From positions 1 to 44,082 of IMG/VR virus record IMGVR_UViG_3300002098_000009: a stretch of DNA of 44,082 bases. One strand, 5' to 3'. Source of the DNA: a virus. Its lineage: Duplodnaviria > Caudoviricetes. Below the pieces are notes generated by a model. It did no database searches and was not told where the DNA came from. It saw only the letters and a list, made by a program, of their open reading frames with translations. Positions within the stretch are counted from its first letter, which is position 1. Every line of letters begins with the position of its first letter. The position numbers were made by a program, and so were the translations under genes. This document shows positions 1-40,586 of the stretch, in pieces.

Positions 1-66
1 GCAGGCTGAACGTGAATCCCTTGACTCCAAATCTGCCCCAGACCTCGCCGAATGTATGCGAGTATT
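1..66. repeat. 66-bp terminal direct repeat, identical to 44017-44082 (circular assembly overlap)
   Basis: gcaggctgaa...gcgagtatt is identical at both ends, and the helicase reading frame runs through the junction. Confidence 0.95.
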
Positions 67-5417: not shown

Positions 5418-5470
5418 TGACTACTGAAACAATGAAATGTATAATTGAAGACTGTGAAAAAGAAAGCTGA
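5414..5470 (+). pseudogene. 18-codon remnant resembling the N-terminus of an HNH homing endonuclease
   Basis: MMTTETMKCIIEDCEKES*; CxxxxCxK zinc-finger start; AT-rich; ATGA-coupled to the upstream gene. Confidence 0.35.
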
Positions 5471-5475
5471 TAAGA

Positions 5476-6975: not shown

Positions 6976-8110
6976 TCTTCATTCGCCCGTTATATTTCGT
7001 AAATGGGTTGCGATCACTACCATTGCGGCGGCGCTAGAACAGAAAGTTTGGGTTAAAACTTCGCGTCCGCTTTACCCAAACATTTTTGTTTTCATCGTCG
7101 GCCATCCGGGTGTTGGTAAAACTCGAACCATGCGCGAAGGCCGGGCATATCTAGAACCGCTTCCCGAGTTCCATCTTGCCCCAATATCCATGACTTTCGC
7201 CAGCCTTGTTGATTCTCTTACCGCAGCCAAACGAACCATAATCCATCCGCCAAATGATCCGCTGGAATACAATTCCATGTATATTTGCGCTGACGAACTT
7301 GGCGCTTTCATCCACAAATACGACAACGAGATGATTGATGGATTATCAGCTTTCTATGATCCTGATCCATACCAGCAGGTTCGCCGAACTTCTGAACTTA
7401 AAATTAAAATCAAATCTCCGCAGCTTAATATTCTGTGCGGTACAACCCCACAAAATCTGTCCGACCTTATGCCCGAAAAAGCATGGGGTCAAGGATTTAC
7501 GTCTCGACTGATCATGGTGTTTTCTGATGAACGAATTATCGGCGATGATTTTGCACCAACTGAGGCCCGCCGATCTGATGACCTTGAGCATGACATTAAC
7601 ATCATCAATGGTCTTATTGGCGGTTTTGAAGTCACAGAAGCTTACCGCGAATGTGTCAATAATTGGCGCGCTCTTGGTGAACCTGATACACCAACTCACC
7701 CTAAATTACTCCATTACAATACCCGGCGTCGAACACACCTATACAAACTTTCAATGATATCCGCAATTGACCGATCCAATTCCCTGATCCTAACCCGCGA
7801 TGATTTCAACCGCGCCCTCGGCTGGATGCTTGAAGCCGAAACAACAATGCCCGAAATCTTCAAAGCTGGTGCCACTAATGCTGATGGCCAAGCTATGGAA
7901 GAAATGCTTTACTTCATTAAAATCAATGATCGCGGCCACGGTGTCTCCGAACAAAAACTTACCCGCTTCGCCTCCGATCGAATACCAATCCACTCAGTTT
8001 TCCGAGCGATTGATCTGATGGAACGAAGCGGGCAAATATATGTTTTAGGGACTGATAAAATAACTAAGCTCAGATACTTCTCAGCGGCAAAGCCAGACTC
8101 ACTTCAATAG
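6908..8110 (+). CDS. DUF3987/YfjI-like P-loop ATPase (putative replicative helicase-like protein)
   Basis: Walker A GHPGVGKT, Walker B ICADE, GFTSRLI (Arg finger), C-terminal winged-helix-like segment; start uncertain (6908 preferred over 6785). Confidence 0.7.
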   Translation: MMNGSGKRRLESWIESFIEQTSNLHSPVIFRKWVAITTIAAALEQKVWVKTSRPLYPNIFVFIVGHPGVGKTRTMREGRAYLEPLPEFHLAPISMTFASLVDSLTAAKRTIIHPPNDPLEYNSMYICADELGAFIHKYDNEMIDGLSAFYDPDPYQQVRRTSELKIKIKSPQLNILCGTTPQNLSDLMPEKAWGQGFTSRLIMVFSDERIIGDDFAPTEARRSDDLEHDINIINGLIGGFEVTEAYRECVNNWRALGEPDTPTHPKLLHYNTRRRTHLYKLSMISAIDRSNSLILTRDDFNRALGWMLEAETTMPEIFKAGATNADGQAMEEMLYFIKINDRGHGVSEQKLTRFASDRIPIHSVFRAIDLMERSGQIYVLGTDKITKLRYFSAAKPDSLQ

Positions 8111-8365
8111 ATGCCGAACCAAATCACCCAGCCCAGCAATCCAACCAAGAAGCAACGCAATGACAGCCAAAAGAATCTTCGCGCCTTTTGCTTGGTTTAA
8201 CAAATTCGTGAAATTATCAACCGACTCTTTTATCTCTTTGATATCGGCTTTCAATTCACGAATCTCTTTGTCAACCTGATCGAATCTCAATTGAACCTCG
8301 CGTCGATGACTTTGATTTTCGCTTTCTAGCGCTGTAATACGTTCACCCGCAGGCCTGTCATTCAT
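8099..8365 (-). CDS. coiled-coil protein with C-terminal TM helix (XhlA/holin- or spanin-like)
   Basis: Heptad N-terminus followed by ILLAVIALLLGWIAGL; last gene of the lysis cluster. Confidence 0.7.
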   Translation of the reverse strand: MNDRPAGERITALESENQSHRREVQLRFDQVDKEIRELKADIKEIKESVDNFTNLLNQAKGAKILLAVIALLLGWIAGLGDLVRHLLK

Positions 8366-8380
8366 ATCAACCCCCGAATA

Positions 8381-8414
8381 AATTCCCCGGAGATTAATTT
8401 CTCCGGGGATTTTT
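8381..8414. terminator. bidirectional intrinsic terminator at the convergence of the two arms
   Basis: TCCCCGGAGA-TTAATT-TCTCCGGGGA followed by TTTTT, with an A/T-rich flank on the other side. Confidence 0.8.
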
Positions 8415-8415
8415 A

Positions 8416-8679
8416 TTAGCTGCTCTTCAAGGCAGAAGCACAGATGACCGCAGTCGCCGCGTCAATCTTGGTGAGCATGGTATTGGTGTTTTGGGACTTA
8501 TCAAAAATCCCAATCAACTTCGTGGTGGTAGGTTCAAAGACGCAATAAATGTTGGTCGTTGCCTGCACCACCTGCTTGCCCAGAGCAATCTCTGCTTGAA
8601 GATTTGCCTGCTGGGTGGGAGTTAGATCGTAGAAACAACCACCAAGGGCCAATGGCAAGGCCAGAATAAATTTCTTCAT
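8416..8679 (-). CDS. lipoprotein, putative outer-membrane spanin
   Basis: MKKFILALPLALGG-C lipobox; lies in the lysis cassette. Confidence 0.7.
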   Translation of the reverse strand: MKKFILALPLALGGCFYDLTPTQQANLQAEIALGKQVVQATTNIYCVFEPTTTKLIGIFDKSQNTNTMLTKIDAATAVICASALKSS

Positions 8680-8921
8680 GGATTGGGTCCTTTCGGTCCG
8701 AGATAAAACTTTGACGTATCGCCCGCCTTAGAAGGAATCATACCCAGCACCGCGTTAACGGCATTGCCGATCCCAAGCACCAAAGCAATTATCGCGAGAA
8801 TGGCTTTAACTTCCGCAGGGCTCAATCCCAGATCGGTAAACTGTGCGCTAGCTCCCGAAAGAAAAGCCAGCACCGCCAGCAATACCGACAACCATACGCT
8901 CCATCTTGGATCAAGTGTCAT
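8676..8921 (-). CDS. holin (two TM helices)
   Basis: Two hydrophobic helices and a basic C-terminus; adjacent to the endolysin. Confidence 0.75.
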   Translation of the reverse strand: MTLDPRWSVWLSVLLAVLAFLSGASAQFTDLGLSPAEVKAILAIIALVLGIGNAVNAVLGMIPSKAGDTSKFYLGPKGPNP

Positions 8922-9398
8922 TTACTTCTCCTGTTTTTTAAGGCGGTATGCATCAAGCGCGATTTGAGCCCACTTGATTCGTTCAGCCAAAGCCGGAACA
9001 CCAGCGCGTTCATACAATCGCTCAAAGGCAATTGTGGCTTCTTGAATATTCTTCGATTCTCGGACGTGCGCGAGAACATAGGCGTAGGAATTATTCCTAT
9101 CTTCGCCGGACAGTTCCAGCTTTAGATAACCATAATTTCCTTCATCCGATCGCCAGTCAAGTTTATGTTCGTGGCACCAGTTCAGGAACAACTTCCGACG
9201 AGGCCCTGTCCACTGCTGCCAACCATATCCGCCATATCCCGGAGGCTGGCCGATTTCATGGAGTACAGTAAACCCAAGACATTCGTGTCCGGTATTGCCA
9301 ACAATCCCTGCGGCTTGGTAATCCTCAAGATTAAAATCGCGGATCAACCAGCGCATTATTTCCGGCGCTTTAGATTTAAACACTTCAATCGGTGTCAT
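8922..9398 (-). CDS. endolysin, phage tail-type lysozyme (Phage_lysozyme2-like)
   Basis: QAAGIVGNTGHE, GYGWQQWTGPRR and AFERLYERAG motifs. Confidence 0.88.
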   Translation of the reverse strand: MTPIEVFKSKAPEIMRWLIRDFNLEDYQAAGIVGNTGHECLGFTVLHEIGQPPGYGGYGWQQWTGPRRKLFLNWCHEHKLDWRSDEGNYGYLKLELSGEDRNNSYAYVLAHVRESKNIQEATIAFERLYERAGVPALAERIKWAQIALDAYRLKKQEK

Positions 9399-17555: not shown

Positions 17556-17971
17556 CAGGTCCTCACAATTTCAAAAGGATACGCACCATTAACCGGATGA
17601 CCAAATTCAGCGCCAACCCATTGAAGCCAAATCATTGCTTCACGATTCATGCAGAGGCCGACGATCTTGGAATACAGCGTTAGCATTTTTGCCGTGACCT
17701 TCCGGGATTCTCTCATAAAGATCAACTTATGTTTAACCAACCCCGGACAATGTTGCATCCAAAGATGTGCAACATCGGATAGCGCGGTCTGTGGAACGGT
17801 GCCGAAAATGCAAAGAAGATCATCCCCATAAAAAGCTGCGTGAACCGGTATTGATATTCTCGCAGCTTGTAGGATAATTTCCTTTTCATTTTCGGTTATA
17901 CTATCCCCCAAATATTGAGAAATCAATCTTTCAGTTTGGGTTAAATCTATTTGATACACCTGAATTTTCAT
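17555..17971 (-). CDS. gp13-like GNAT-fold protein
   Basis: LCIFG...AHLWM...AMIWLQWVGAEF; follows tail tubular protein B. Confidence 0.7.
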   Translation of the reverse strand: MKIQVYQIDLTQTERLISQYLGDSITENEKEIILQAARISIPVHAAFYGDDLLCIFGTVPQTALSDVAHLWMQHCPGLVKHKLIFMRESRKVTAKMLTLYSKIVGLCMNREAMIWLQWVGAEFGHPVNGAYPFEIVRT

Positions 17972-21879: not shown

Positions 21880-22068
21880 TTATCGCTTTCCTTGGGTACC
21901 GGCGTTGCCATGATTGGTACCACCACCAAGACCGGGACGTTCATGCATGTGATTCTTCGGCCCGAGTGGCGGTAAATAAGGAAGTTCTTTCTTTTCTACC
22001 TTACCGCCGTTCGCAGCGCGGGAACCAGAAGTTCGTTCAGGTCCAAAATGAGAATGAAAATCTTTCAT
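21880..22068 (-). CDS. small basic Gly-rich protein ending GTQGKR
   Basis: GGAGG RBS; ATGA coupling. Confidence 0.7.
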   Translation of the reverse strand: MKDFHSHFGPERTSGSRAANGGKVEKKELPYLPPLGPKNHMHERPGLGGGTNHGNAGTQGKR

Positions 22069-22247
22069 TTCGAATCCTCCACGGGTTTGCCTGACAAGTC
22101 AAATTCTGCCTGATCTGAATTAACAGGCTCAGCCAGATGAAGCTTCGCTAGTTCAATGGCAGCCGCTTTGGCAAGCTGAGCTGCCTCGGGAACACCAACC
22201 GACATGTGGATGATATTAAGCAGCAGCGACGCGCGTTCAAAATCCAT
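22065..22247 (-). CDS. hypothetical protein (60 aa)
   Basis: AGGAG RBS; operon context. Confidence 0.7.
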   Translation of the reverse strand: MDFERASLLLNIIHMSVGVPEAAQLAKAAAIELAKLHLAEPVNSDQAEFDLSGKPVEDSK

Positions 22248-22256
22248 GATTATCTC

Positions 22257-22457
22257 CTAATGTTTACCCTGAGAACCTTTTGTATGCGTGGTACAACCTT
22301 TCATCGGAGCTTCGAGGCCGCGACCTTCATAAACCTGAACCGACCGAGTCCGTACCTGATGGATGCCGATTTCAGAAACTGCGGCAGGGTTTATACCTCG
22401 GGACTTGGGTTCGATCTTGGTGCCAGCAACCACAGTATTTGCTCTGCCCTGTTTCAT
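22257..22457 (-). CDS. small basic protein ending GSQGKH
   Basis: GGAG RBS; ATGA coupling. Confidence 0.7.
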   Translation of the reverse strand: MKQGRANTVVAGTKIEPKSRGINPAAVSEIGIHQVRTRSVQVYEGRGLEAPMKGCTTHTKGSQGKH

Positions 22458-22822
22458 TTGTCATCTCCGGGTTTAGCCAGCTGGCGAGTATGATCCCAAC
22501 GGTTCATTGGGTCTTTACCCATTTCACGGCGAACCTTTTCAAAAGTGCCGCCATCAGAATGAGCTTCTTCGAGCAACTGACGATAACGATCATCGCATCG
22601 TTCAGCTTCACGAAGAATATAATGCGGAATTACATGGCCACGCTCGGTATACATGTTCATAACATCATGAACATCGTGCATGTACATGATAAATCGCCGC
22701 ATTTTCTCAGGCACTTCGGATTCAGCCTCGACCATAGAATTAACAACTTTCGCCAACATGCCTTTGATGATGGCGATATTCTGATCGATGGATTTGAGAT
22801 AGGCTTCGATTGCATCTGACAT
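22454..22822 (-). CDS. hypothetical protein (122 aa)
   Basis: AAGG RBS; tightly packed in the late operon. Confidence 0.7.
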   Translation of the reverse strand: MSDAIEAYLKSIDQNIAIIKGMLAKVVNSMVEAESEVPEKMRRFIMYMHDVHDVMNMYTERGHVIPHYILREAERCDDRYRQLLEEAHSDGGTFEKVRREMGKDPMNRWDHTRQLAKPGDDK

Positions 22823-22836
22823 TGGTTGCGCCTTGG

Positions 22837-24699
22837 TTATTGTGTTGGAATTACGCCGGAGATATTAAGTGTTGCACCTGACGCTGCCGGAGTTAGGTTG
22901 CTGTATGTGAAACAACTTAAATTGTTCGAGGCGGCTTGGGTTTCGCAGACTAGGCTGTTTCCGCCAACGCCATCGCTACGGCCAAGAATTGGAACTGAAG
23001 AAACTGTTGAGTACCAAGGTGTGGTGAAGCTAACAGCGCCAGTACAGGTGCCGGCATTTGTGATCGGGATTGTAACATAAATCCAAGCAGATTTGCCATC
23101 AAGGTTATCGTAAATGCCTTTGACTGTGCCAAGAGTTGTGATGCTTCCACTGCCGCAGGTGATGGTTGGTGTCCAAGAATCATACCCAAGAGGATTGGCA
23201 CCGATGTTGATTCGGTTGGAACCAATGTCAGAATAACCATGAGGCATGTTGATTTGAGAAGCAAGCATACCAGCAGGAATATTAAGGTCTGCGATTCGAA
23301 CGCCACCCACTGCGCCTTTGGTTATATTGTATGTTCCGATGGAAAGATAAGATGCATTGTTGCCAATCGCTATAGGCGGGAGTGTATTGCCAATGGAACA
23401 ATTAGTTACATTCAGGTTTGAAATCTGAACGTGCGCCGGTGTGGTTGGACCGATGCTAATACAGTTTGTATTATACGAACCATCGATGTTTAGATTGCTA
23501 TATTGAGACAGCGGCGCATCGATTAGTAGAGCTTGAATTGGATTGGTTCCATATCCCTGACCTGCGGTATAGAGAGTATTGACAGTAAAGTTTTTTGCGT
23601 TAGATGTTGCGTAGACACCGTAAGCAGGTGCATTAACACCATTCGGAGAATCTGACCAGAAACTATCCAATAAAATATTCGCCCCATCGGCGAGGAAATT
23701 AATCGTATGGCCGTAAGACAAGCTCATACCGTCAATGGTTGCTCCGTCTTGAAGCCCGGTGAATGAGAAACCATAACTACTGCGGGGAAGGCCGGAAAGT
23801 GCGGTGACGGTGCCGTTATTGACTTGAGCAACAGTAGCCCAAGGCCAGACATGAACAGAAGTATAAAGTGACGTATCGTCGTTTGGCCCAGAAATCAAAC
23901 CGGCGTTGCAATCAAGATTCACGTTACGAAAATGGCCGCGGCTCAGGGTTGTACCTACGCTGGTGAAGCAAGTATCGAAACCCATGATAAGAACATTTTC
24001 GAGCGTAAAGTCATTGAAATGAGACGTAGATGATGGTAGATCAACTGCTGTGCCAACCCAAGCCGAAGAATTATTCTGCGGAAAAGACATACCATAAGGT
24101 GTGATTAAGCAACCGCGAATGGCCGTGGAATTATTGCCGTGAATTTTCGCCGATGTTGCGAGACGAATTTGACTCATGGTGTTGTAAATTGTGCCTTGAG
24201 TGTTATCAGATGCCCAACCAGTATTGAATGATTGACATTCAAGCGATGAACCAGCGGGTAGAGTAATGCTAGATGCAAGATAAATCTGGCCCGAAGATTC
24301 AATCATGCAACGTCCGCCGGTGCCAGAGTTGGCAGCAGCGGAAAGACAATTATTGATCGCGGTGGTCGAATCAGCTACACCAGTCAAATCAGCGCCATAT
24401 TCGGCACCGGCCCAATAGGTAACAAGCTTAGATGAAACCGCGGAGGTTGATGAACCAAAGAGCGAGCCAAGCGGCGCCGAGAATAACTGAGCTGCGCCTG
24501 TAACGCCAGTACCGCCGTAGATTTGATTGGCCGCAATCGATGGTAGCGTGACCGATGGGCCAAGTGAATTATGCACAAACGCAGTTGAGGCGCAGGCATT
24601 GGAATTATCACCAGTTGGTCGCGTGGCGCAGGTTGTGTTCTGGGCCAACACCGGGCTAGCCCAAAACAAAAATCCCAAGAGTAGAAAAAGTTTTTTCAT
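22837..24699 (-). CDS. tailspike/depolymerase-like beta-helix protein with N-terminal Sec signal peptide (620 aa; start ATG 24699)
   Basis: ATGA coupling at 24696-24699; MKKLFLLLGFLFWASPVLA|Q; GDNSNACASTAFV fibre motif; YGADLTGVADSTTAIN pectate-lyase-like start; WTPTIT C-terminal fibre domain. Confidence 0.8.
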   Translation of the reverse strand: MKKLFLLLGFLFWASPVLAQNTTCATRPTGDNSNACASTAFVHNSLGPSVTLPSIAANQIYGGTGVTGAAQLFSAPLGSLFGSSTSAVSSKLVTYWAGAEYGADLTGVADSTTAINNCLSAAANSGTGGRCMIESSGQIYLASSITLPAGSSLECQSFNTGWASDNTQGTIYNTMSQIRLATSAKIHGNNSTAIRGCLITPYGMSFPQNNSSAWVGTAVDLPSSTSHFNDFTLENVLIMGFDTCFTSVGTTLSRGHFRNVNLDCNAGLISGPNDDTSLYTSVHVWPWATVAQVNNGTVTALSGLPRSSYGFSFTGLQDGATIDGMSLSYGHTINFLADGANILLDSFWSDSPNGVNAPAYGVYATSNAKNFTVNTLYTAGQGYGTNPIQALLIDAPLSQYSNLNIDGSYNTNCISIGPTTPAHVQISNLNVTNCSIGNTLPPIAIGNNASYLSIGTYNITKGAVGGVRIADLNIPAGMLASQINMPHGYSDIGSNRINIGANPLGYDSWTPTITCGSGSITTLGTVKGIYDNLDGKSAWIYVTIPITNAGTCTGAVSFTTPWYSTVSSVPILGRSDGVGGNSLVCETQAASNNLSCFTYSNLTPAASGATLNISGVIPTQ

Positions 24700-25085
24700 G
24701 TGTTTGAATCCATGACAGTCAGGGGATTGGTTGTACCGGCACCTGTGACTGCCAATGCCTGCCACGCGCCTTGGCATTCGCCCGATATATCTAAAGTACC
24801 GCCATTACCAAATACTCGACGCATACCGCCAAGGGCTGCATTGGTTGGAGTCAAAGCAACATTTGATGGAGTAGTTGGAGCAGTTCCTAAAACATTTTGA
24901 ATATAACTTGGGCCAATAAAAATATCATTTGGCCCCGGATTATGGAACGTGATGCGTTGCCGCGACGGATTGGCCTGAGCTACTACCGTCGCGGTTGTTT
25001 CATTGATGTTATTGTAGCCGTAGACTTTACCGCCGGAGGCAGATGAAAAAGTCTGCGGACCACCAACGCCTCCGACGATTGACAT
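24696..25085 (-). CDS. small beta-rich virion protein (129 aa)
   Basis: ANPSRQRITFHNPGPNDIFIG pattern typical of small jelly-roll virion proteins. Confidence 0.65.
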   Translation of the reverse strand: MSIVGGVGGPQTFSSASGGKVYGYNNINETTATVVAQANPSRQRITFHNPGPNDIFIGPSYIQNVLGTAPTTPSNVALTPTNAALGGMRRVFGNGGTLDISGECQGAWQALAVTGAGTTNPLTVMDSNT

Positions 25086-25086
25086 A

Positions 25087-25194
25087 TTACTTCCCCTTCA
25101 TAGGCTTGCCGGGCTTACCAGCAGGCATCTTCTTACCGGGCATTGCCTTACCGGGCATCGCCTTGGGTTCAATTTTCTTCGGCATCTTAGCCAT
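25087..25194 (-). CDS. 35-aa Lys/Pro/Met/Gly-rich basic peptide (absent from the ORF track)
   Basis: MAKMPKKIEPKAMPGKAMPGKKMPAGKPGKPMKGK*; GGAG RBS; TAATG-coupled to the upstream gene and fills the gap exactly. Confidence 0.7.
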   Translation of the reverse strand: MAKMPKKIEPKAMPGKAMPGKKMPAGKPGKPMKGK

Positions 25195-25694
25195 TAGACT
25201 CTCCGGGTGATTGAAGCAAGAATCTCCTGATTCTGCTTTGCCTGAACAGCGAGAATTTCGACGAGGTCTTTAAGTCCCGGGATTTCAACCGGCGCTGAAG
25301 CCTTCTGAGCCATTTCAATTTGAAACTTATCAACCAGCGACTGAGAATAGGTGCCGAGGTCAGTCTCAGGTTTATAGCTCCAAGCATGTTCAAAGCTATC
25401 AGAGATAGCCTTGGCTTCATCGTCGAGTGGAATCATGTCCGGAGTCGGATCACCGATGAATACCTTATCGGTAGATTCACCTTTACCTTCATGGCAGACA
25501 ATGACTTCGCCTTCCATGTTATCTTTAAAACCCCAGCGATTAGTCCAAGAATCCGGGTCTCTGGGGTCAAGGAACGTCGGAACAGGGATTCGCATACGGC
25601 GTTCTTTGCCGGTCGTGCGGTCGTTTTCTTTATATTCCCATTCTTCACCGGGGATATTAAGATAGTGCCCGGCCATAAGTTTCCATCTAGCCAT
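25194..25694 (-). CDS. hypothetical virion-module protein ending SITRRV
   Basis: GGAG RBS; TAATG coupling. Confidence 0.75.
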   Translation of the reverse strand: MARWKLMAGHYLNIPGEEWEYKENDRTTGKERRMRIPVPTFLDPRDPDSWTNRWGFKDNMEGEVIVCHEGKGESTDKVFIGDPTPDMIPLDDEAKAISDSFEHAWSYKPETDLGTYSQSLVDKFQIEMAQKASAPVEIPGLKDLVEILAVQAKQNQEILASITRRV

Positions 25695-26314
25695 TAGTTA
25701 GTCTCCTGCCATTCCATAGAAATCGCCAGAACACCCGAAGAAATAGAAACGCCATTGAGATTCAGGCAAACCTGCTGGGTGGTATTTTTCTGCAAAACCA
25801 AACCATGTTCAAACATGTCAACGGCAGAACCGAAAACAAGTTCAAAAGGCCGACCAACAGTTGTGGTGACACCAAATGATACCGCCGGAGCTTTCATCAA
25901 TGAGGGCGATGAATCTACAACCGTAGGATTAGCAGTGTAAGCTACCAACGTCGCGGTTGAAGCCTGATCGGCTGGAAACAATGGAACAGCCACAGGAGCG
26001 GCAAGAGAAGTCGCTGCCGTGCCACCGGTATCAAGAGAAACACGACGATAGACTAGCACAGGAGTTGTGATTGCCGTACCGGCGGTTCCTGAAAGAATAA
26101 CCCGTCGAATGGTTATATTTCGAGTGGCTCCGGGTGAGATACAAAAGATATCAGTCGCCGACGCTGCGGGAACGAGGCCGACCGAGGAAGCGGTGTAGGT
26201 TGGATTCTTGATGATGCCAGAAATTGTACCAACCTGTGGCACAACATTCACCTGAGCGAATGATGGGGCAATAAGCCCCACCAGCGCCAGAATGAAGAAT
26301 ACAAATTTCTTCAT
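25694..26314 (-). CDS. beta-sandwich decoration-like protein with Sec signal peptide
   Basis: MKKFVFFILALVGLIAPSFA|Q; Thr/Ala/Val-rich; follows the capsid cement gene; GGAG RBS. Confidence 0.75.
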   Translation of the reverse strand: MKKFVFFILALVGLIAPSFAQVNVVPQVGTISGIIKNPTYTASSVGLVPAASATDIFCISPGATRNITIRRVILSGTAGTAITTPVLVYRRVSLDTGGTAATSLAAPVAVPLFPADQASTATLVAYTANPTVVDSSPSLMKAPAVSFGVTTTVGRPFELVFGSAVDMFEHGLVLQKNTTQQVCLNLNGVSISSGVLAISMEWQETN

Positions 26315-26326
26315 CTGAGTTCTCCG

Positions 26327-26881
26327 TTAGTTGGCGACAGTAATACCGGCGGGATAGCCAGAATAAGCACCACCAGTACCAAGGATTTGATCATCACGAT
26401 CAATGACGATCTGCGCTTCAATCGTGCCGGTGGAGTGGGTACCAACAGAAATAAAGCGCATGCGGAGAAATCGCGGAACCGCCTGACCCGGAACCGGACG
26501 GGGCACGTCGATGTTAGCAAGCTGAGCACCAGCAACAAGCTGAGCCTCAGCAATCGCCTGCGACTGCCACATGACGGTGTAAGAACCCGGGGCACCAGAG
26601 CCGTTGTCAGGGGCACCATCGAGTTCAAGCTGAAGGCTGGTACCGCCAGTGAACGCAACCGGACAAATAGCCGAGAGCTTGAGCGCCGGATCATCACCGA
26701 CGCCAAGATCACGAGCACCACCGCCGGAGGCCGAATTGGGAAGACCCGAAACACCAAGATCGATGATGTTAGAGGCAATCTGAGTGCCAGCCGTCGGAGA
26801 GTCGGTCTGAGCACCGGCTGTGATGCCACCGGTGGCGCCGTTAGACGTGCCGGTGAAAGTGAGGAGCCCGTCAAGAATCAT
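26327..26881 (-). CDS. capsid cement/decoration protein (BPP-1 Bbp16-like)
   Basis: MILDGLLTF...SNIIDLG...RDLGVG...FTGGTSLQ...RFLRMRF; directly after the MCP. Confidence 0.8.
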   Translation of the reverse strand: MILDGLLTFTGTSNGATGGITAGAQTDSPTAGTQIASNIIDLGVSGLPNSASGGGARDLGVGDDPALKLSAICPVAFTGGTSLQLELDGAPDNGSGAPGSYTVMWQSQAIAEAQLVAGAQLANIDVPRPVPGQAVPRFLRMRFISVGTHSTGTIEAQIVIDRDDQILGTGGAYSGYPAGITVAN

Positions 26882-26883
26882 GA

Positions 26884-27927
26884 TTACACCACCTGAGCTT
26901 CGTTGTTGAGGATTGCGTCGCAGGTCCTGATCGGGATGCCGCGGAACGTGGTAACGACCTTGCCATCGAATTCTTCAAGACGGAGCAGGACGTTAGTCTT
27001 GTTCATCGCCTGAAGATCGAGGTAAGTGCGAACCACGCGGTTACAGTAGATAACCGTGCGGCCCATGTTGGCGCGAACTTCCGGGGTATCAGAGGTCTGA
27101 ATCGCCGAGGCCATCGCAGGGGCGGTGGGCAAGCGATACAGGGCACGAACCAGAAGATTGATGAGGTTGGCCGCAGAGACACCGGTCAGCTGAGTAACGT
27201 CGATGTTAGCGATACGGGCAACATAACGCCAGTCACGCAGAACAAGGCCGATTTCCCACTTGAAATGATCGCGGTACGCCTGATAAGTATTGCCGGAGGA
27301 ATCGGTAACAGGCCACTCGCCCATGTCACGATGCTGCAGGCCGGTGATCTTGCCCTTCGGGAACGTCCCATGGAGCGTGTCGTTGCCCCAAGTCTGAACC
27401 CAGATGGAAGTGTTGGTCGAAGAAGTACCACCGCCATCAAGAACATTGTTCGCCGTCTGAGAGTTGGAAGTATTCTTGGTGGAATACCTTGGAGCCAATC
27501 CGGTGAACCGTTCCGGATTAGTGTGCTGGTTGCCGTAAATCAGCGTCGAAGCAATCTGCTGGGACATGCCTTCAAGAAAGGCCTTGACTTCGGACAGACG
27601 GAACTCGGCGGTGTTGCCGTTAAGGTCGGCGATATCCTTATCGATAACGGCGTAGGTCTCGAGGTTACCGCAGGTATCAACAATCTGCGCCGTAGTCGAC
27701 TTGGCGTTCGGGACACCGGTGTTGAGCAAGCGCCAAGTGGCCTGAGGCAAACCGGTACGGACAGTGGTTTTATGTCCGGTCGGGAGATTGCCTTCCATGA
27801 CGAGCATGTCATCAAGGATTTCATTCGTCTGAGACAGCAATTCGATGATAGACGCGATGCGATATCCATCATCCATGCGCTTAGCCCAATCCGCGTAGGT
27901 TAGGGCTGTGCTACCAATAGTCGCCAT
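26884..27927 (-). CDS. major capsid protein (BPP-1 Bbp17-like, HK97 fold)
   Basis: LTYADWAKR...IELLSQTNEILDD...RTGLPQATWR...PERFTGLAPRY...FRGIPIRTCDAILNNE; strongly biased codon usage. Confidence 0.92.
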   Translation of the reverse strand: MATIGSTALTYADWAKRMDDGYRIASIIELLSQTNEILDDMLVMEGNLPTGHKTTVRTGLPQATWRLLNTGVPNAKSTTAQIVDTCGNLETYAVIDKDIADLNGNTAEFRLSEVKAFLEGMSQQIASTLIYGNQHTNPERFTGLAPRYSTKNTSNSQTANNVLDGGGTSSTNTSIWVQTWGNDTLHGTFPKGKITGLQHRDMGEWPVTDSSGNTYQAYRDHFKWEIGLVLRDWRYVARIANIDVTQLTGVSAANLINLLVRALYRLPTAPAMASAIQTSDTPEVRANMGRTVIYCNRVVRTYLDLQAMNKTNVLLRLEEFDGKVVTTFRGIPIRTCDAILNNEAQVV

Positions 27928-28002
27928 TGTTAAATTCCTGAGTTAGAGTTTGGTTACACAGTTCTGATCTGGGCTAAGCCGTTCGACCTTATTAAGGCTC
28001 AG

Positions 28003-28677
28003 TTACTGTGGAAGATTTGGATACATTGCCGAAGCAAGAGTTGGCCGTTGGGTCTGACCGGATTTGGACTGACCATGCGGCGAGGGACCAGCACCGGATA
28101 CGTTGGTGCCTTCATTAACAAGGCTAGCCAAAGCATTGAAAGCTTTAACAAAAGCAGGATTATCGCCGATGCCGTAGAGATTCATGGCTTCCTGAAACGG
28201 GGTACGAATTTCAGCGGGGATTTGATTCAAGGCCCGGCCGATATTAGTCTTGACTGCATCAATCTTCCCACCGATTTCTTTGTCGGCTTTAAGCTCGTTC
28301 CGCCACTGTTCCTGCATTTTGATGATACCGTCGTCAGTAGACTTCTTCATCGCAGTGAGTTCAGCGTTATGAAAATCTACCAGTTTCTGGGCAGCATCTT
28401 GTGAAAGCCCAAGTTCTTTGAAGATGGGGGTTGCACGCTCGATCGCGGCTGCGTCAAGCTGCTGACCTTCCGACGCGGCAAATTCGTATTTTTCTGGGAC
28501 ACCGTCGGTAGGTTTAGTGGTATCAACGGGGGCCTGTTCATCGGGCTTAGTTTCCGTCAATGGGGCTTTGGACTGATCGATGATTTCACCGGTCGTCGTC
28601 CTCGCCTCCGGGGTATTCGTCATGGGCGGTGTCGTCGTCGACGTTGTCGGCGTTGAGGGGATCACTGGCTCGTTCAT
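28003..28677 (-). CDS. capsid scaffolding protein
   Basis: VPEKYEF, KELGLSQDAAQKLVD, ASAMYP C-terminus; upstream of the MCP. Confidence 0.8.
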   Translation of the reverse strand: MNEPVIPSTPTTSTTTPPMTNTPEARTTTGEIIDQSKAPLTETKPDEQAPVDTTKPTDGVPEKYEFAASEGQQLDAAAIERATPIFKELGLSQDAAQKLVDFHNAELTAMKKSTDDGIIKMQEQWRNELKADKEIGGKIDAVKTNIGRALNQIPAEIRTPFQEAMNLYGIGDNPAFVKAFNALASLVNEGTNVSGAGPSPHGQSKSGQTQRPTLASAMYPNLPQ

Positions 28678-28978
28678 TTGAAATTTCCCGTATGTTTGCC
28701 TCTTCCATCATCGTGACAAAGTATCGCGGGCAATTCGATACTATGTCATTGTAGATTTGCAGTCCAATGTTTCGTTCACCTTTGGAATAGGCTTCGAGAA
28801 GAGCTTCACCTGTGAATGGATCGGCGAAGATATGACATTTGACGAGAAAATCATGAAACCAAGCGCGACCGGGTTGGGTGGACATTGCAGCAACAATGAA
28901 GTTAATCCGATCCGTTTCGCGAAGTTTGGCGAGTTTTTCGTATTTGCGAATATCTTTTCGTTCGCCCGCGTTGCGCAT
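28586..28978 (-). CDS. Bbp19-like head protein
   Basis: MSTQPGRAWFHDFL...AYSKGERNIGLQI. Confidence 0.75.
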   Translation of the reverse strand: MRNAGERKDIRKYEKLAKLRETDRINFIVAAMSTQPGRAWFHDFLVKCHIFADPFTGEALLEAYSKGERNIGLQIYNDIVSNCPRYFVTMMEEANIREISNERASDPLNADNVDDDTAHDEYPGGEDDDR

Positions 28979-29169
28979 TAGTTCAGCCTGTAAATGCCGG
29001 TGTGCTCAGTTTCGAATGAAACCCATTCATCTTCGGATACGCGAACTACGGCAGTCGCTGCAAGATCAGGATCGCTGGTTTCGTCGCCTTCAACAGTGAA
29101 CATGTTAGTTACCGGACAGAGTTCACCGTTGACCCAGATTGAACCAACCACTTTAAAATCAGGTTCCAC
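28978..29169 (-). CDS. hypothetical protein (63 aa, GTG start 29169)
   Basis: GGAGG RBS within the portal 3' end; PVTNMF..GDETSDPDLA; TAATG coupling downstream. Confidence 0.6.
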   Translation of the reverse strand: MEPDFKVVGSIWVNGELCPVTNMFTVEGDETSDPDLAATAVVRVSEDEWVSFETEHTGIYRLN

Positions 29170-30895
29170 CGCCGCCTCCTGTGAGAGCTTGCAAGGCATT
29201 TTGTCCTCCACCAACATCAGCCCCTGCAAGGTTCTTGGCACCTGCGGATAGTTGTTGTGCAATCTGCGCCTGCTGCGCCTGCTGCTGGGCTTGCGCCCGT
29301 TGCTGCCGAATCGCGGCCAAAGCGTCCGGACTTCTTATCATCTTAGGATCATTGTTTAGTAGGCTGGAGTATTTGTCAAGAGAATAATCCACGTCGATGT
29401 TGTCCATAGCCTCAGGAACAACGCCGACGATGTTACCAACTAGCGACAGGACTCGTTCAATGGAAGCAGCCTGCGTGGCTTGCTGGGCCTGAGCTAGCAT
29501 GGAGACAAATTCAATATTCATCATCCGACCCTGAATTTCAGGTGGCGCGGGTGGAAAGATTCCGGCGCGGTTGGCAATGGCAAATACACGTTCAAGAACG
29601 GGTTTGAGAACTTCGTTGTCGATGCGTTCCAACGCAGGACCAAGCATGATTAAAGATTCAGATTTACGCAGGTCCCATTCGACCGCGGTAACATTGGATC
29701 GGGTTTCGTATTGAGACGCAACTTTAAGAACGTCGTTGAAGAAGATTTGGGATAGCCGAGATTTTACTTCGGTCAGGTCCTGAGTGATTTCCTGTACCGG
29801 AAAATGCGTGTCGTATACCGAGGAAAATCCGGGTTTGCCGGAGGCGGTGTAACCAGAAACAAAAGTAATACCGCCGGGAGTTAGATTAGCTGGCTGGTTC
29901 TTAAGTTGAACGTCGGCGACCAGCGGAGGGTTGACCATTTTATCAATGGCTTGCGCCTTGCGCCGAGTTTCAAGTTGAAGTTGCTTCTGGTCGGGTAGAG
30001 CATCCATACCCGGCGAACGACCGTAAGGATCATTAGAAACTACGTCCCAGCGACCGGTGATATTTGGTTGCTCAAGAAATCCCCGCTTGCGGAGAAATCC
30101 CGGTGGACTGGCAGCACCGCCTTGGGGGGAAGTTGAACCGCCCCATTCCCAATAAGCTTCGCGGAAAGCAAAACGTTCGGGGATACCAAATTCTTTAGCG
30201 CGACCGTCGTCATTGGGTTCAATGGAATGTGCGACGATCAGTTCGCGGGTGAGATTGGCACCCTTGGGATCGTCATAAAGTTGCTGGATTGGGCCGGAAC
30301 AATTATCGTAACCGAACTCTTTGACACAGGCATCGACAGTCATAGTAAATTCGCGATAGAATACCGTCGGCCGATATTTACCGTCGATATCAATATAATA
30401 TTCACCAAGGCAGGGATTGATGCAATTAACGACATTTTCGAAATCTTCGTAGATCAGCATTGTCGCTGTACCGAAGATTACAAGATCGAAGTAGAACACT
30501 GCGATAGAGTTGTAAAAATTAGATTCGGCGAAGATTAAATAAAGCAAACGCTCGCACTCGGCAAGCCACAGGCTGACCGGAGAAGTCTGTGTTGAATCAA
30601 GGCGGCCGATTCGGAGGCGAAACCATGGTGTGGTTGGAGAAGATTTGCCTGAGACAAGACCTGACGCAAGATTGCGCGCATAAATACATGCCGATGAATC
30701 AAGAATATGTTGATTAATCGGGGCGCCGCGAGCCATTTGATTTGGTGTAATGAGCCATTTATACCGGCGCGGAAGGAAGTAATCCGCGAGTTCGCGCCAA
30801 TGTGTCCACGGTGAATAGCGGTTGACTCGCAGGCCAAGTAAACGACCTTCGGAATATGCGCGAAATTTAAGGTCAGTTTCCGATATGTTGGGCAT
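29159..30895 (-). CDS. portal (head-to-tail connector) protein
   Basis: WRELADYFLPRR, SNFYN, DLVIFGTA, PYGRSPGMDAL, TAVE...LGPALER, Gln-rich tail. Confidence 0.92.
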   Translation of the reverse strand: MPNISETDLKFRAYSEGRLLGLRVNRYSPWTHWRELADYFLPRRYKWLITPNQMARGAPINQHILDSSACIYARNLASGLVSGKSSPTTPWFRLRIGRLDSTQTSPVSLWLAECERLLYLIFAESNFYNSIAVFYFDLVIFGTATMLIYEDFENVVNCINPCLGEYYIDIDGKYRPTVFYREFTMTVDACVKEFGYDNCSGPIQQLYDDPKGANLTRELIVAHSIEPNDDGRAKEFGIPERFAFREAYWEWGGSTSPQGGAASPPGFLRKRGFLEQPNITGRWDVVSNDPYGRSPGMDALPDQKQLQLETRRKAQAIDKMVNPPLVADVQLKNQPANLTPGGITFVSGYTASGKPGFSSVYDTHFPVQEITQDLTEVKSRLSQIFFNDVLKVASQYETRSNVTAVEWDLRKSESLIMLGPALERIDNEVLKPVLERVFAIANRAGIFPPAPPEIQGRMMNIEFVSMLAQAQQATQAASIERVLSLVGNIVGVVPEAMDNIDVDYSLDKYSSLLNNDPKMIRSPDALAAIRQQRAQAQQQAQQAQIAQQLSAGAKNLAGADVGGGQNALQALTGGGGGT

Positions 30896-31058
30896 TTTGA
30901 TTCTCGGTCTGAGACTGCATTAACCGACCTTCGGAATGCATTTGAGCCGCCGCCATGAGTTCAAATTCAGGCTTTACTGGCGGAAGCTGTGGCTGGATTA
31001 CTTGGCTTTGGGATTGTTGCGCATTGCGCTTGGGTCTGGAAAGAGGAACAACGGGCAT
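30873..31058 (-). CDS. hypothetical protein (61 aa)
   Basis: ELMAAAQMHSEGRL; packed between its neighbours. Confidence 0.6.
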   Translation of the reverse strand: MPVVPLSRPKRNAQQSQSQVIQPQLPPVKPEFELMAAAQMHSEGRLMQSQTENQNAQHIGN

Positions 31059-31060
31059 GG

Positions 31061-31342
31061 TTATTGCCCCAAGAGAGTTTTGTTTGAGGTATTTTGTTGC
31101 ATCGGAGTGGCAGCTGATGCAAGGAAACTCGGCGGCGCGGCAGGTTTGTTTGTGGACGGTGTTCCGGTCGGAGATTGTGCCGGTGCAGGCGGTGCTGGTG
31201 CAGAAGGGGCTGAAGGTTTAGAGCCAAGACTGGAAAGTAGTGTACCTCCTGCAAGACCAGCGAGTCCGGCGGCTCCGGCAGATGAACCAAGAAATGATCC
31301 GATGCCAGAAATGGCGGCACCGATTGAAATTGGATCAACCAT
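31061..31342 (-). CDS. small Gly/Pro-rich virion protein ending KTLLGQ (start ATG 31342)
   Basis: Typical pre-portal podophage protein: hydrophobic Gly-rich N-terminus, Pro linker, TLLG C-terminus. Confidence 0.7.
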   Translation of the reverse strand: MVDPISIGAAISGIGSFLGSSAGAAGLAGLAGGTLLSSLGSKPSAPSAPAPPAPAQSPTGTPSTNKPAAPPSFLASAATPMQQNTSNKTLLGQ

Positions 31343-31343
31343 G

Positions 31344-32849
31344 TTAAGCATCCATCCGTTCAGAGGAATGCGGGTCCCATTCAGTGATGATTTCAGACTT
31401 GTGTGGATAGTCACCGCCGGCGAGGGTATTAGGATTCAGCGGATGAGCGAAGGTTAGGACTAGAGCGTCGATATCATCCAGCGAAATACCATTACCATCC
31501 TCGTCCACCAAATCTTCTTTACGTTCAAGAATGATTTCGTCTTTGACGTTGAAAGTGTAGCGGATTGCCAGCATCTGCCTGCGGAGCTCAGGGTCTGGCG
31601 GAAGTGCACCACCTTTGAGCCACGCTCGACAGGCTCCATACATTGCAGCCCGATTGTTTGCGTATTTCTCACCGGCATTACCCCACACAGTGTTGTAGAT
31701 TACATCTTTTCCGCCGAATTGAACTTCATAGCAGAACAGGCGCTTGTTGCGAACTTGATCCACAACGCCACCGCCAACACCACCACCGTCAATCATTATG
31801 CCGTCGGAGTGATAGCGAAAATGAGCTTGAAGAACGGCATCGGATAGTTGAGTTGTGGAATATCCGTTAAAACGTTCGCGAGCGATGGTGCGGGCATCGC
31901 GGCCCTTACGTGGGAAAATAACCGAGGCATTAGCGCCGAATCGGGCGACGTCGACACCAAGGGCCAATGGATCAGTTTTGTCAACGTAGACTTCTCGAGT
32001 CATAGCCTCATCGATTTCGGCCGCGGAAAAGAATTCCATCAGGCCTTTACGAGGGAATTGGCCAAGAACACGAACGCGCACAAAGTCAGAGTCGAGGCCA
32101 TAAGCTTCGATCCAGTTGTTCAGGCGGGCTTTATTGGTGACTCGAACATCGCGTGAATCGATCTGGCGATGACGCCATTGCTTTGCAAATTTGCCACCTT
32201 CGAAACACTCGCGGAATCGACCAGAGTTTTTAGTTGGGTTGCCGAAGATAAGCCAGAGGATTTCGGTGTCAGAATCGGTCAGCGCACCTTCGGCGGTTTC
32301 ATAGATGATATCTGGAATTTCAGAACCTTCGTCGAAGATTAGGAGGATTCGCTTGCCTTGGTTATGAAGACCCGCGAAGGCCGCCGGGTTCTTCTCTGAC
32401 CAAGGGATCATGTCGATGCGCCAAGTACGTTCACGGTCAGGGTCTTTGGAGAACAGACCTGTGGCTGTAAGGTTGTAATGATCGCGAGCGAACCAACAAA
32501 GATTAAACCATTTACCAAGTTCAGCCCATGTTTTGGTTTTAAGCTGAGTTTCGGTGTTGGCTGTAATGACTCCGCGAGTGTCGGGGTAGGTGCAGAACGC
32601 CCACATGATGATCCACGCCACAGTGGCGGATTTGCCGATGCCGTGGCCGGAGGCGATGGCGATTTGCACGGCGGTTTCGGTATCGACAATCCCATCGCGG
32701 ATCATATTCATGAGATCGCAGGACCATTCATCAGGGCCGGAGAATTTCTCAAGAACTGTGCCGGGCTCGCCCCAAGGATAGGCGCCGAGGGTGAACGCGA
32801 GAGGATCGCCCCGAACTTCTGCCAGCCATGCGAATAGGTCTTGGTTCAT
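31344..32849 (-). CDS. terL: terminase large subunit
   Basis: Walker A SGHGIGKS, Walker B LIFDEG, motif III GNPT, nuclease GVDVARFG...IDGGGVG...DDIDALVLTFA. Confidence 0.95.
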   Translation of the reverse strand: MNQDLFAWLAEVRGDPLAFTLGAYPWGEPGTVLEKFSGPDEWSCDLMNMIRDGIVDTETAVQIAIASGHGIGKSATVAWIIMWAFCTYPDTRGVITANTETQLKTKTWAELGKWFNLCWFARDHYNLTATGLFSKDPDRERTWRIDMIPWSEKNPAAFAGLHNQGKRILLIFDEGSEIPDIIYETAEGALTDSDTEILWLIFGNPTKNSGRFRECFEGGKFAKQWRHRQIDSRDVRVTNKARLNNWIEAYGLDSDFVRVRVLGQFPRKGLMEFFSAAEIDEAMTREVYVDKTDPLALGVDVARFGANASVIFPRKGRDARTIARERFNGYSTTQLSDAVLQAHFRYHSDGIMIDGGGVGGGVVDQVRNKRLFCYEVQFGGKDVIYNTVWGNAGEKYANNRAAMYGACRAWLKGGALPPDPELRRQMLAIRYTFNVKDEIILERKEDLVDEDGNGISLDDIDALVLTFAHPLNPNTLAGGDYPHKSEIITEWDPHSSERMDA

Positions 32850-34471
32850 TTACCCATCACCGTCCAAGCAGACCCATTGCAGTTGACTGTGTAGTAGGTG
32901 GAAGCGCCGCCGGTTACTGTTGCGCCCCACGCGAGAGCCCCGGTTCCATCCGAGACGGCTTTGAGTGTGCCCTTCGCGCCGGAGTTGCACGTCCCGAGCG
33001 CCGCGACTGTCGTTGGTGTCAACAATAGAGACGGGGCAGAAATTTGTCCGACAATGCTGAGACTCCCATTGTTGGAAACATCAAACGTGGCGATGTCTCG
33101 CGTCCCGTTAAAAAGAGCGAGCCCTGTCCCTGAAGCATTGTACCATTGCAGATTCTCGCCCGACCCTGTGCGCGAATTGGCAACGAGGCCCCCATTTGCG
33201 CCACTCGCGGCGATGCTTCCCCCGAGAAGATTGCCGGTCCCGTCAACGCAGAACTGAAAGGTTTTAATGGCGCAACCGGTGAACGTGACGTTGGAAAAAT
33301 CAATGCCGTGAAGCGCGCCCGGCAGGAATGCAACCGGATTCGCGGCGTAGATAAGACGGCCTGTCGTTGCCTCGATAGGCCAGTAGCTATCCTCTCGACC
33401 AATGGAAATGCCAACCTTCACGCCGACATTCGAGGCGCTGTCGCTCGTCAGCGCGAGAAGGCTGTCATGCACCGCACCCTGTATCTTGTCATTTCCACTG
33501 CCATCTCCACCAGAAACGAGGGACAGTGCTGATTTGACGGCGACCGAAGATGCGGTCATCGCCATCACGTCGATCTCGGAACCAAGCCCTTGCAGGTTCG
33601 TCGCGCCTGAATGGGCGGTGCTGATCGCGCCCATTGCGTAGAAGTTCCCCTTAGAGTTGGCGAGGCTTGTTCCCGTCCCACCATCGGCGGAATAAACATC
33701 CATGTGAGGGAACGCGGACGTGTAAAATCTCGCCGGGTTGAGCGCATCCGACGCCCCGTTGAAAGTCGTAAAAAGGCTGAGCCCTGTCTGCGCACCACTC
33801 GCACCAGCGTTGATCGCGTGGTTCATCTTGACGGCGATATTTTCAGCCGCCGTGTCTTTTATGGTGGATGTCGTGTTGAACAGGTACACATTCGAGTCAG
33901 CAGCACTACTCGTGCCGGACAACCCGCCAGAAAAGAGCCCCCCGTAAGGTAGCCACGATTTGACTCCGGTCTGTTGAAGCACGCTCGTCCCGTTGATATT
34001 GTACGACAACCCCGATGACAGATTCACGTCGCCCGTAAACGTGTCGCCCGTCTTATTCACCGGGAAGGAGTTCAGCATCCATTGCTGGTAGATACCGGAA
34101 TATTGATATGTTGCGGCGATCCCGCTGGCGGTGACGCATGCTGCGGGTCCACCGGCTGCGACTGTATCGGGCGAGGTTGCGACAACGGTGATTGTACCGA
34201 CAGCACCACCGAGGCAACCGATGGATATAAGCTGACCATCGAATGCTGGGAAGGGCATGTTGACGGTCCAGCTGGTGATGTCGCCAACTGCGTAGACATT
34301 GATGTTGGCCGGGTTCGCGGCTTGATGGACGGTGGTTGATACCGTCCCGCCGGATTGGACGTAGATCGCGCCGGTGGCATAGACAGGCGGGTTTAGATAG
34401 CCTTGGGCCCACGCAAGAGTCGTGGTGATAAGGACCAATGCGAAAGTGCTAAGAAAAATTCGCTTGCGCAT
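32846..34471 (-). CDS. tail-fibre-like protein with Sec signal peptide, located between terS and terL
   Basis: MRKRIFLSTFALVLITTTLAWA|Q; VNKTGDTFTG fibre motif; C-terminal TVAALGTC...VSDG...VTGG...CNGSAW fibre-tip-like domain. Confidence 0.75.
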   Translation of the reverse strand: MRKRIFLSTFALVLITTTLAWAQGYLNPPVYATGAIYVQSGGTVSTTVHQAANPANINVYAVGDITSWTVNMPFPAFDGQLISIGCLGGAVGTITVVATSPDTVAAGGPAACVTASGIAATYQYSGIYQQWMLNSFPVNKTGDTFTGDVNLSSGLSYNINGTSVLQQTGVKSWLPYGGLFSGGLSGTSSAADSNVYLFNTTSTIKDTAAENIAVKMNHAINAGASGAQTGLSLFTTFNGASDALNPARFYTSAFPHMDVYSADGGTGTSLANSKGNFYAMGAISTAHSGATNLQGLGSEIDVMAMTASSVAVKSALSLVSGGDGSGNDKIQGAVHDSLLALTSDSASNVGVKVGISIGREDSYWPIEATTGRLIYAANPVAFLPGALHGIDFSNVTFTGCAIKTFQFCVDGTGNLLGGSIAASGANGGLVANSRTGSGENLQWYNASGTGLALFNGTRDIATFDVSNNGSLSIVGQISAPSLLLTPTTVAALGTCNSGAKGTLKAVSDGTGALAWGATVTGGASTYYTVNCNGSAWTVMGK

Positions 34472-34479
34472 AGGGGACC

Positions 34480-34836
34480 TCAGTAGTAAGAGACAGTAAT
34501 ATCACCTGCGGCGGTAGCAGTAACAATGGTTAGACCGGTTGTGAAATTTACGTCAAAAATCGCGCAGCCTTGGATGCTTGCGTAGGAAGTTATCGTGCCG
34601 ATCTTGGTTCCGGACGCGGCGGTGTTGTCGTAGATGGTAATGGTTTCAGTCGCGGCCGGGGTATCGATGCAGATGGTATGGAGGATACCCGGCCCGGATT
34701 TGACAACGATGGTTGCGTCGGTGGTAATGTTGACGTATTTATACGCGGTAATCACTAGCTGCGGTGAACCGAAAGTCTGGGCGAAAGCTGAGGTCGCAAA
34801 TAATGCGGCGAAGATTGCTGCGAGGATGCGTGACAT
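34480..34836 (-). CDS. small beta-sandwich virion-type protein with Sec signal peptide (start ATG 34836)
   Basis: GGAGG RBS; MSRILAAIFAALFATSAFA|Q; YVNITTDATIVVKSGPGILHTI...TIYDNTAASGTKI. Confidence 0.75.
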   Translation of the reverse strand: MSRILAAIFAALFATSAFAQTFGSPQLVITAYKYVNITTDATIVVKSGPGILHTICIDTPAATETITIYDNTAASGTKIGTITSYASIQGCAIFDVNFTTGLTIVTATAAGDITVSYY

Positions 34837-40540: not shown

Positions 40541-40586
40541 ACGCCGCCTATGTACATTGAGTATTAAAACCGGAAGGAAACAAGTG

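Follow-up and report, generated by a model that had tools for sequence, protein, structure and literature searches.

The DNA analysed here, referred to as the window, is the whole of IMG/VR virus record IMGVR_UViG_3300002098_000009, a complete genome that is 44,082 bases long and has direct terminal repeats (CheckV completeness 100%). It is that of a BPP-1/epsilon15-like podophage, with the GP7 capsid, Bbp16 cement, portal, adaptor, nozzle and ejection proteins encoded in order. Its minus-strand late operon, which has the BPP-1/epsilon15 layout and also includes a scaffold gene, carries four genes for proteins that start with a predicted Sec leader, here called SP620, SP206, SP541 and SP118 (Table 1). 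The first-pass annotation had taken these for a tailspike, a fibre-like, a decoration-like and a small beta protein with leaders of the Sec/signal peptidase I (SPase I) type and 14, 2, 6 and 2 cysteines, and had proposed that they are exported, folded with disulfides in the periplasm and added to virions only at lysis. The leaders and cysteine (Cys) counts are as it described, and no Cys lies inside any leader. The feature is real and clade-wide and, when tested, fits no known family.

Each of the four starts is supported, the ATGA of SP620 overlapping the stop codon of p129 and the motifs GGAG, GAGG and GGAGG standing upstream of the other three. A 646-amino-acid (aa) open reading frame (ORF) from 24777 was considered as an alternative start of SP620 and rejected, as it overlaps p129 in another frame and homologues favour the start at 24699. 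No lipobox was found in the four; SP206, SP541 and SP118 have no Cys near the end of the leader, and C24 of SP620 lies 5 residues past the cleavage site, again without a lipobox. A clear membrane anchor, C-terminal ones included, was not found in the mature chains (best 19-residue hydropathy 1.05-1.86). Elsewhere in the late region a leader was called only in the lysis-cassette lipoprotein, which does have a lipobox, and the presence of a lipoprotein in that cassette points to a two-membrane host. The adjacent leaderless genes for p129 and the cement protein have one Cys each, as had been noted. The Cys of the four proteins were also said to lie in neighbouring pairs, which holds for the two large proteins (consecutive gaps of 11-42 and 8-36 residues) but not for the small ones (gaps of 125 and 35).

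Table 1. Features of the window, with the exchanged cassettes of two related phages
Feature	Position	Strand	Basis or remark
SP620, 620 aa, 14 Cys	22837..24699	-	predicted Sec leader aa 1-19 (nt 24643-24699)
SP620 module A, resembles a tail-fibre repeat, holds C24/C36	aa 20-45	-	weak matches to PHROG tail-fibre families
SP620 beta-helix tailspike-like body	aa ~97-500	-	homologues; C-terminal domain aa ~500-620
SP206, 206 aa, 2 Cys	25694..26314	-	predicted Sec leader aa 1-20 (nt 26255-26314); directly after cement gene
SP541, 541 aa, 6 Cys	32846..34471	-	predicted Sec leader aa 1-22 (nt 34406-34471)
SP541 domains: conserved N-terminal domain, then fibre-like body common to relatives' module-A proteins	N-terminal domain aa ~23-150	-	sequence comparison
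SP118, 118 aa, small, beta-rich, 2 Cys	34480..34836	-	predicted Sec leader aa 1-19 (nt 34780-34836)
p129, leaderless small jelly roll, translationally coupled to SP620, 1 Cys	24696..25085	-	start-stop overlap, structure model
p166, conserved, leaderless, just upstream of p129/p141 cassette	25194..25694	-	precedes p129 or p141 in 50/51 loci
Bbp16-type cement protein, leaderless, 1 Cys	26327-26881	-	PF21190/PF20911 search (pair of capsid + cement)
GP7/Bbp17-type major capsid protein, leaderless	26884-27927	-	PF20911/PF21190 search (pair of capsid + cement)
Portal	29159-30895	-	late operon
Large terminase	31344-32849	-	late operon
Tail adaptor	20788-21876	-	leaderless ~140-aa insert, aa ~110-248
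Nozzle, 938 aa (768 in BcepC6B)	17968-20784	-	leaderless extra sequence
Ejection proteins	9431-17555	-	late operon
Lysozyme	8922-9398	-	lysis cassette (8099..9398), directly after last ejection protein
Holin-like	8676-8921	-	lysis cassette
Lipoprotein with lipobox	8416-8679	-	lysis cassette
Fourth lysis-cassette gene	8099-8365	-	lysis cassette
L070 cassette, p141 + module B	16286-18213		near-identical phage L071 has p129 + module A at 11927-14283

Leaders were called with a heuristic for n-, h- and c-regions, not with SignalP. It picked out 4/4 of these late genes and 0/28 early ORFs of the window, with a background of 1/452 among core proteins of relatives and 11/1837 among antisense ATG starts. 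Our main sample of relatives consists of 80 loci selected by capsid similarity alone, many of those without leader hits being short. Leaders were called on 168 of 1098 ORFs, spread over 63 of the 80 loci, and the genes concerned occupy the slots seen in the window, namely in front of the terminase gene, behind the cement gene and behind p129. SP206 has homologues in 1030 clusters. For the top 120 the identity to the window protein is 29% over leader residues 2-20, against 76% and 62% in the mature part, and yet all 114 full leaders initiated with Met have the basic start and hydrophobic core, with 5 more, started with Val, that look alike and 1 protein truncated. Among the 114 there is Ala at -1 in 102 and at -3 in 104, and leader length is 18-27. 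C183 is present in 120/120 and C58 in 119/120. The first mature residue is Gln in 106/120 of this alignment and in 90 of 111 leader-bearing proteins of relatives (L025-L102), a share inflated by a scorer that favours Gln.

The number of Cys in the leader-bearing chains is almost always even. Among the 111 non-redundant leader-bearing proteins 95 have an even number, 6 an odd number and 10 none (95/101 even for those with Cys), and with one protein per family the figures are 20, 0 and 4 (24 families). For leaderless core proteins, which were not de-replicated, they are 162, 185 and 140 (162/347 even for those with Cys). The same contrast is found within the SP620 beta-helix family, for which 130 of 155 homologues, those of at least 400 aa, were kept: there are 34 even and 6 odd among the 40 with a leader and 48 even and 42 odd among the 90 without (p=7e-4), although some few of the 90 carry leaders that the heuristic missed.

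These data bear on the possibility that the hydrophobic N-termini do not serve export, being either uncleaved anchors that keep fibres on the cytoplasmic side of the membrane or segments bypassed by internal starts. Such a view could draw on the heuristic nature of the calls and on the GTG codons just past the SP206 cleavage site. However the -3 and -1 residues and the leader length of 18-27 are conserved and Cys parity tracks the leader within one family. Furthermore the first 60 codons of the four genes hold no in-frame ATG, GTG or TTG with a Shine-Dalgarno-like motif, so no leaderless start is evident, and we regard this view as very improbable. Export signals and even Cys counts together suggest that these appendage-like proteins fold outside the cytoplasm, and the four proteins are very probably exported through Sec, cleaved, and oxidised and trimerised in the periplasm. 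Export and disulfide pairing, the first half of the earlier interpretation, are thus strongly supported by leaders that drift while keeping their chemistry and by Cys parity; as to the second half, the envelope roles that it had named as alternatives still stand beside docking and are discussed below.

With regard to the identity of the four proteins, none has a full-length Pfam, PHROG or NCBIfam match, and SP620 and SP541 gave no match to PDB sequences. Homologues and one fold model are the basis for calling them tailspike, fibre and decoration, and for the two large proteins there is support for a fibre or spike identity. The beta-helix body of SP620 has no direct Pfam match and is assigned through homologues: it matches the tailspike of Erwinia phage AH03 (E 6e-4), and of 619 relatives P0123 and P0125 carry PF12708. 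Its 12 body Cys are kept 12/12 in P0121 and 11/12 in P0128. No P22 head-binding domain or T7-type anchor was found at its N-terminus, where the leader and module A stand instead. The beta-helix proteins P0128 and P0189 have a leader ahead of N-terminal domains that by eye, and without Pfam confirmation, resemble those of the leaderless tailspikes P0170, P0179 and P0237. Module-A proteins of L004, L146-148 and L228 have matches to the body of SP541 (aa 182-538), which indicates that bodies move between N-terminal modules. SP118 precedes an SP541-type gene in 6/7 loci.

A structure model of SP206 is a jelly-roll beta-sandwich (predicted local distance difference test, pLDDT, 84) with both Cys, C58 and C183, in strands. 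It has fold matches down to E 6e-12 among uncharacterised phage proteins, and Foldseek found nothing in the PDB at E<=0.001, with jelly-roll capsids, C1q/TNF and 9k09 above that threshold. Neither SP206 nor p129 has a significant match to solved decoration proteins, but the fold and the head-module position fit, and SP206 is a likely candidate for a head decoration or a small adhesin. An SP206 homologue with leader and 2 Cys also occurs in the head module of a contractile-type prophage of Paraburkholderia sp. BCC1885 and two metagenome-assembled genomes, between Phage_Mu_F and DUF2213 (L023 9890-10495, L022 3941-4546, L024 near 9900-10510). A 99-aa gene beside the L023 homologue was tried as a relative of p129, which was unsupported (hhalign probability 0.3). 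No homologues of SP206, p166 or the L100 fibre were found in cultured phages, and one scan of a genome collection gave 3 SP206 homologues only, all distant.

A domain scan of 65 of the 111 leader-bearing relatives (63 positive by the heuristic and 2 by eye) gave individual proteins with Collar (E 3e-13), Peptidase_S74 (E 7e-11), pectate-lyase/beta-helix, GDSL and glycine-rich domains, most having no Pfam match. PHROG tail, connector or virion families were matched by about 18 of 48 scanned.

Module A comprises the first mature residues of SP620 and is common to many proteins with unrelated bodies, which are freely swapped. Two PHROG tail-fibre families were each matched by 8/18 members (best E 1.4e-4), weakly but repeatedly. 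Among 51 loci it is closely associated with p129, which is followed by module A in 26/38 (8 have another gene and 4 none) and never by module B. The leaderless and unrelated p141, which has no detectable homology to p129, is in contrast followed by the Cys-bearing module B in 12/13 loci and never by module A. The two cassettes replace each other: on a capsid tree of 37 rows the cassette label switches 4 times, with no fewer than 3 of the switches forced, and L070 and L071 share 91% identity as far as the opening bases of p141 or p129 but differ across the cassette. A second sample of 80 loci, fetched with p129, overlaps the first and includes near-duplicates; in it module A is downstream of p129 in 72, absent in 6 and cut off in 2, and 70 of the 72 module-A genes have a hydrophobic leader. 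The fibre genes in L155 (2451-4214) and L169 (442-1911) start at module A, with neither a leader nor the module-A Cys pair, and that of L155 matches tail-fibre and depolymerase PHROGs. They are most simply read as natural cytoplasmic counterparts of the leader-bearing module-A fibres, and module A would on the simplest reading be a docking plug usable from either compartment that gains a disulfide when exported.

The p129 model (pLDDT 84.7) has as its best fold match the PM2 spike protein P1 (Z 9.3, root-mean-square deviation 2.7, 91 residues aligned), and Foldseek against the PDB gave nothing at E<=0.001. We suggest that p129 is a candidate cytoplasmic socket for module A, likely sited on a capsid vertex or present as a decoration.

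The usual site for a tailspike gene, after the ejection proteins, is empty in the window, where the lysis cassette follows directly. Lysis-type or small genes likewise come next in all 7 large-ejection-protein loci and in the clade members among the 19 of 47 nozzle loci that reach that far; a leaderless spike was seen there only in the distant L237. It had been claimed that there is no fibre gene without a leader, and for whole genes this stands, as no other fibre-like gene was found in the rest of the complete genome. It does not extend to parts of genes, since the tail adaptor has its leaderless insert. This insert is missing from BcepC6B gp11 and the 8ck1 connector and matches phrog_9703, 'head decoration' (E 1e-5), and adaptors of relatives are also about 350-366 aa.

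Tailspikes of the P22/epsilon15/BPP-1 type, such as BcepC6B gp18 and that of Erwinia phage AH03, come with a virion chassis like that of the window (GP7 capsid, Bbp16 cement, adaptor, nozzle) and also combine a conserved N-terminal module with a swappable beta-helix or fibre body. However these are leaderless, cytoplasmic and encoded after the ejection genes, whereas the window proteins have a leader, even Cys, another N-terminal module and another slot. In vitro, the P22 tailspike can still attach to heads without tails once lysis has taken place. The nearest working parallel is pIII of the filamentous phages M13 and fd, a receptor-binding virion protein that takes the Sec route and acquires periplasmic disulfides before joining the particle. 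pIII retains an anchor in the membrane at its C-terminus and is incorporated while the phage is extruded from a living cell, whereas the window proteins have no clear anchor and come from a tailed phage that encodes a lysis cassette, so that the pIII route fails on anchor and life cycle. Systems with a vertex spike base and head fibre (PM2 P1, the PRD1/PR772 vertex, the HFTV1 turret and phage 7-7-1) resemble p129 in so far as it is a small jelly roll with a modest top match to PM2 P1. Each vertex of phage 7-7-1 bears a single fibre, on a base proposed to be pentameric, and the accessible text on its capsid fibres makes no mention of export (PMC12796354).

Two cultured Burkholderia phages carry comparable genes for uncharacterised proteins. 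BcepC6B gp19 has a Sec-type leader, a tail-fibre repeat related to module A and 4 Cys. CDS_0099 of the myophage Burkholderia phage Bm1 (L242 2364-5369) is a fibre-like protein of 1001 aa that starts with a Sec-type leader, has 10 Cys that are mostly paired closely along the chain, and is a homologue of SP541 (pairwise E 4e-9). The words 'signal', 'tail fiber' and 'tail spike' do not appear in the accessible main text of the Bm1 paper (PMC12003559).

The best mechanism, to which we give a probability of about 0.58, is that the exported proteins dock at lysis on particles built in the cytoplasm. Sec would carry the four proteins out and SPase I would cut between AxA and Q, after which DsbA/B-type oxidation would form the disulfides in the periplasm, where trimers would also form. 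Lysis would then mix the compartments and allow the appendages to dock. The freed N-terminal module A of SP620 would bind p129, likely fixed on the capsid or neck, with SP206, SP118 and SP541 binding other sockets, and undocked surplus might also clear capsule during release. The likely gain would be disulfide-stabilised adhesins and sugar-cutting enzymes held apart from the assembly line. Docking gains indirect support from the linked leaderless partner, the leaderless Cys-free versions in the same slot and the empty tailspike slot.

Several points weigh against docking. The presence of the four proteins on particles is a prediction from sequence, and many of the loci are near-duplicates. The module A of the window itself gave only a tail-fibre PHROG (E 0.064) and PDB 9k09 (E 0.81), and p129 matches the STIV turret, SH1 and PR772 vertex proteins at Z 6.5-7.8, close to background. 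The pairing of p129 with module A is not obligatory, as shown by the 6/80 loci with no neighbouring module-A gene, and gene linkage by itself can yield co-inheritance of a cassette. Beta-helix homologues without and with a leader are about equally rich in Cys (1.7 and 1.9 per 100 aa), so parity and not richness is the signal; the capsid proteins of phage 7-7-1 form a disulfide network according to the accessible text (PMC12796354), and Cys richness alone is thus not special. BcepC6B keeps a leaderless tailspike after its ejection genes beside the leader-bearing fibre, and Bm1 CDS_0099 has small unannotated genes around it and is a long way from head gene CDS_0016, outside the structural module. 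Finally, the leaderless adaptor and nozzle inserts, which might instead hold appendages, could provide receptor binding without any exported part.

The Bm1 location, the loci in which p129 lacks its fibre and the leaderless adaptor insert would all suit another explanation, that after export and disulfide folding the proteins never become part of virions, and act in the periplasm or at the surface of the infected cell or in the lysate, in capsule or exopolysaccharide removal for release, receptor masking, decoying or superinfection exclusion, while host binding by the particle would go through the adaptor and nozzle inserts. Leader conservation and Cys parity also fit this role, and the GDSL esterase and beta-helix passengers could serve as soluble enzymes. 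Periplasmic and lipoprotein exclusion factors are known in phages, and T4 Spackle and T5 Llp, together with spanins, T4 RI, and lambda Lom and Bor, are sent via Sec, some with disulfides. However those are small lysis or exclusion factors and, while alike in their Sec route, are not fibres with virion-type modules, and the window proteins lack the lipobox or clear membrane anchor of most surface exclusion proteins. A soluble enzyme would have no need of a conserved N-terminal module tied to a leaderless partner, and module A also occurs leaderless and Cys-free in the same slot. Collar and S74 domains are hallmarks of fibres and the complete genome yields no other fibre gene. We consider a role confined to envelope and release less likely than docking, though it deserves serious attention.

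It is also conceivable, though in our view quite unlikely, that only the large module-bearing fibres dock, as dispensable whiskers on head or neck for reversible adsorption in soil or biofilm, with SP206 and SP118 being periplasmic helpers or chaperones. This overlaps with the docking mechanism favoured above, differing solely in which parts dock, and also with the envelope role. Many relatives have other small leader-bearing families in place of SP206 and some lack it, the SP118 gene comes ahead of those of SP541 type, and the p129 fold is nearer, if weakly, to vertex proteins than to tail parts, all of which would be in keeping with such a division. However SP206 has a viral jelly-roll fold that recurs in other phage proteins, and it stays in head modules even of a different phage type.

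Going further, we tentatively picture a large uncultured lineage of lytic tailed phages, and put this fuller picture at a little under even odds. Its bare cytoplasmic particles would bear leaderless sockets (p129 or p141 and the adaptor insert), its whole recognition kit would be exported, folded with disulfides and kept in the periplasm, and lysis would be the last step of assembly. The socket-plug cassettes would be exchangeable, and a switch of route would involve leader and disulfide staple together.

The clade is abundant, with about 650 IMG/VR stretches matching the capsid patterns. The capsid protein is 57% identical to its closest cultured match and 88-95% to the best 80 IMG/VR relatives. 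No integrase was found in the window genome, and 22837-27927 has no listed RNA holder. The structural genes of Caulobacter phage Kuura, whose DNA polymerase is the closest cultured match (35%), are without leaders. Between the fibre slot and the adaptor (21880-22822, minus strand) there are four small conserved leaderless genes (122, 66, 60 and 62 aa) for which no family match was found; the first of these, p122, comes after the fibre slot in most relatives. On the plus strand DNA polymerase A is seemingly split (4323-6975) into a gene for uracil-DNA glycosylase and 3'-5' exonuclease (4323-5417) and a polymerase gene (5476-6975), and the early gene at 40557-41207 has a run of CxxCxxC repeats between matches to phrog_15341 and phrog_31265, both of unknown function.

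The established view is that tailed phages complete their particles in the cytoplasm, ahead of lysis. We found no description of Sec-exported tailed-phage fibres in a search of literature outside the subscription journals, and within the literature searched periplasmic export with docking at lysis is described for no tailed phage. The accessible parts of the phiCbK, AlgoCIS, UFJF_PfDIW6 and 7-7-1 proteome papers report no exported fibres, and those of PMC3556154, 10.1101/2025.10.08.681156, PMC8951688 and PMC3517404 describe no Sec-exported tailed-phage fibre. The window genome itself contributes a candidate socket gene linked to its fibre, an alternative that is swapped in for it, and a control free of leader and Cys.

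If docking after export is true, infectivity of these phages would depend on host Sec and Dsb, and particles within the cell would be incomplete. There would be a new target for host defence, and also a new reason for such phages to resist culture or annotation, the latter because leader-bearing fibres are easily filed as morons. As the cultured phages BcepC6B and Bm1 carry such genes, the question is directly testable. Even if the proteins act in the envelope, the clade has an arsenal of exported fibres, lectin-like proteins and depolymerases that is undescribed in the literature searched.

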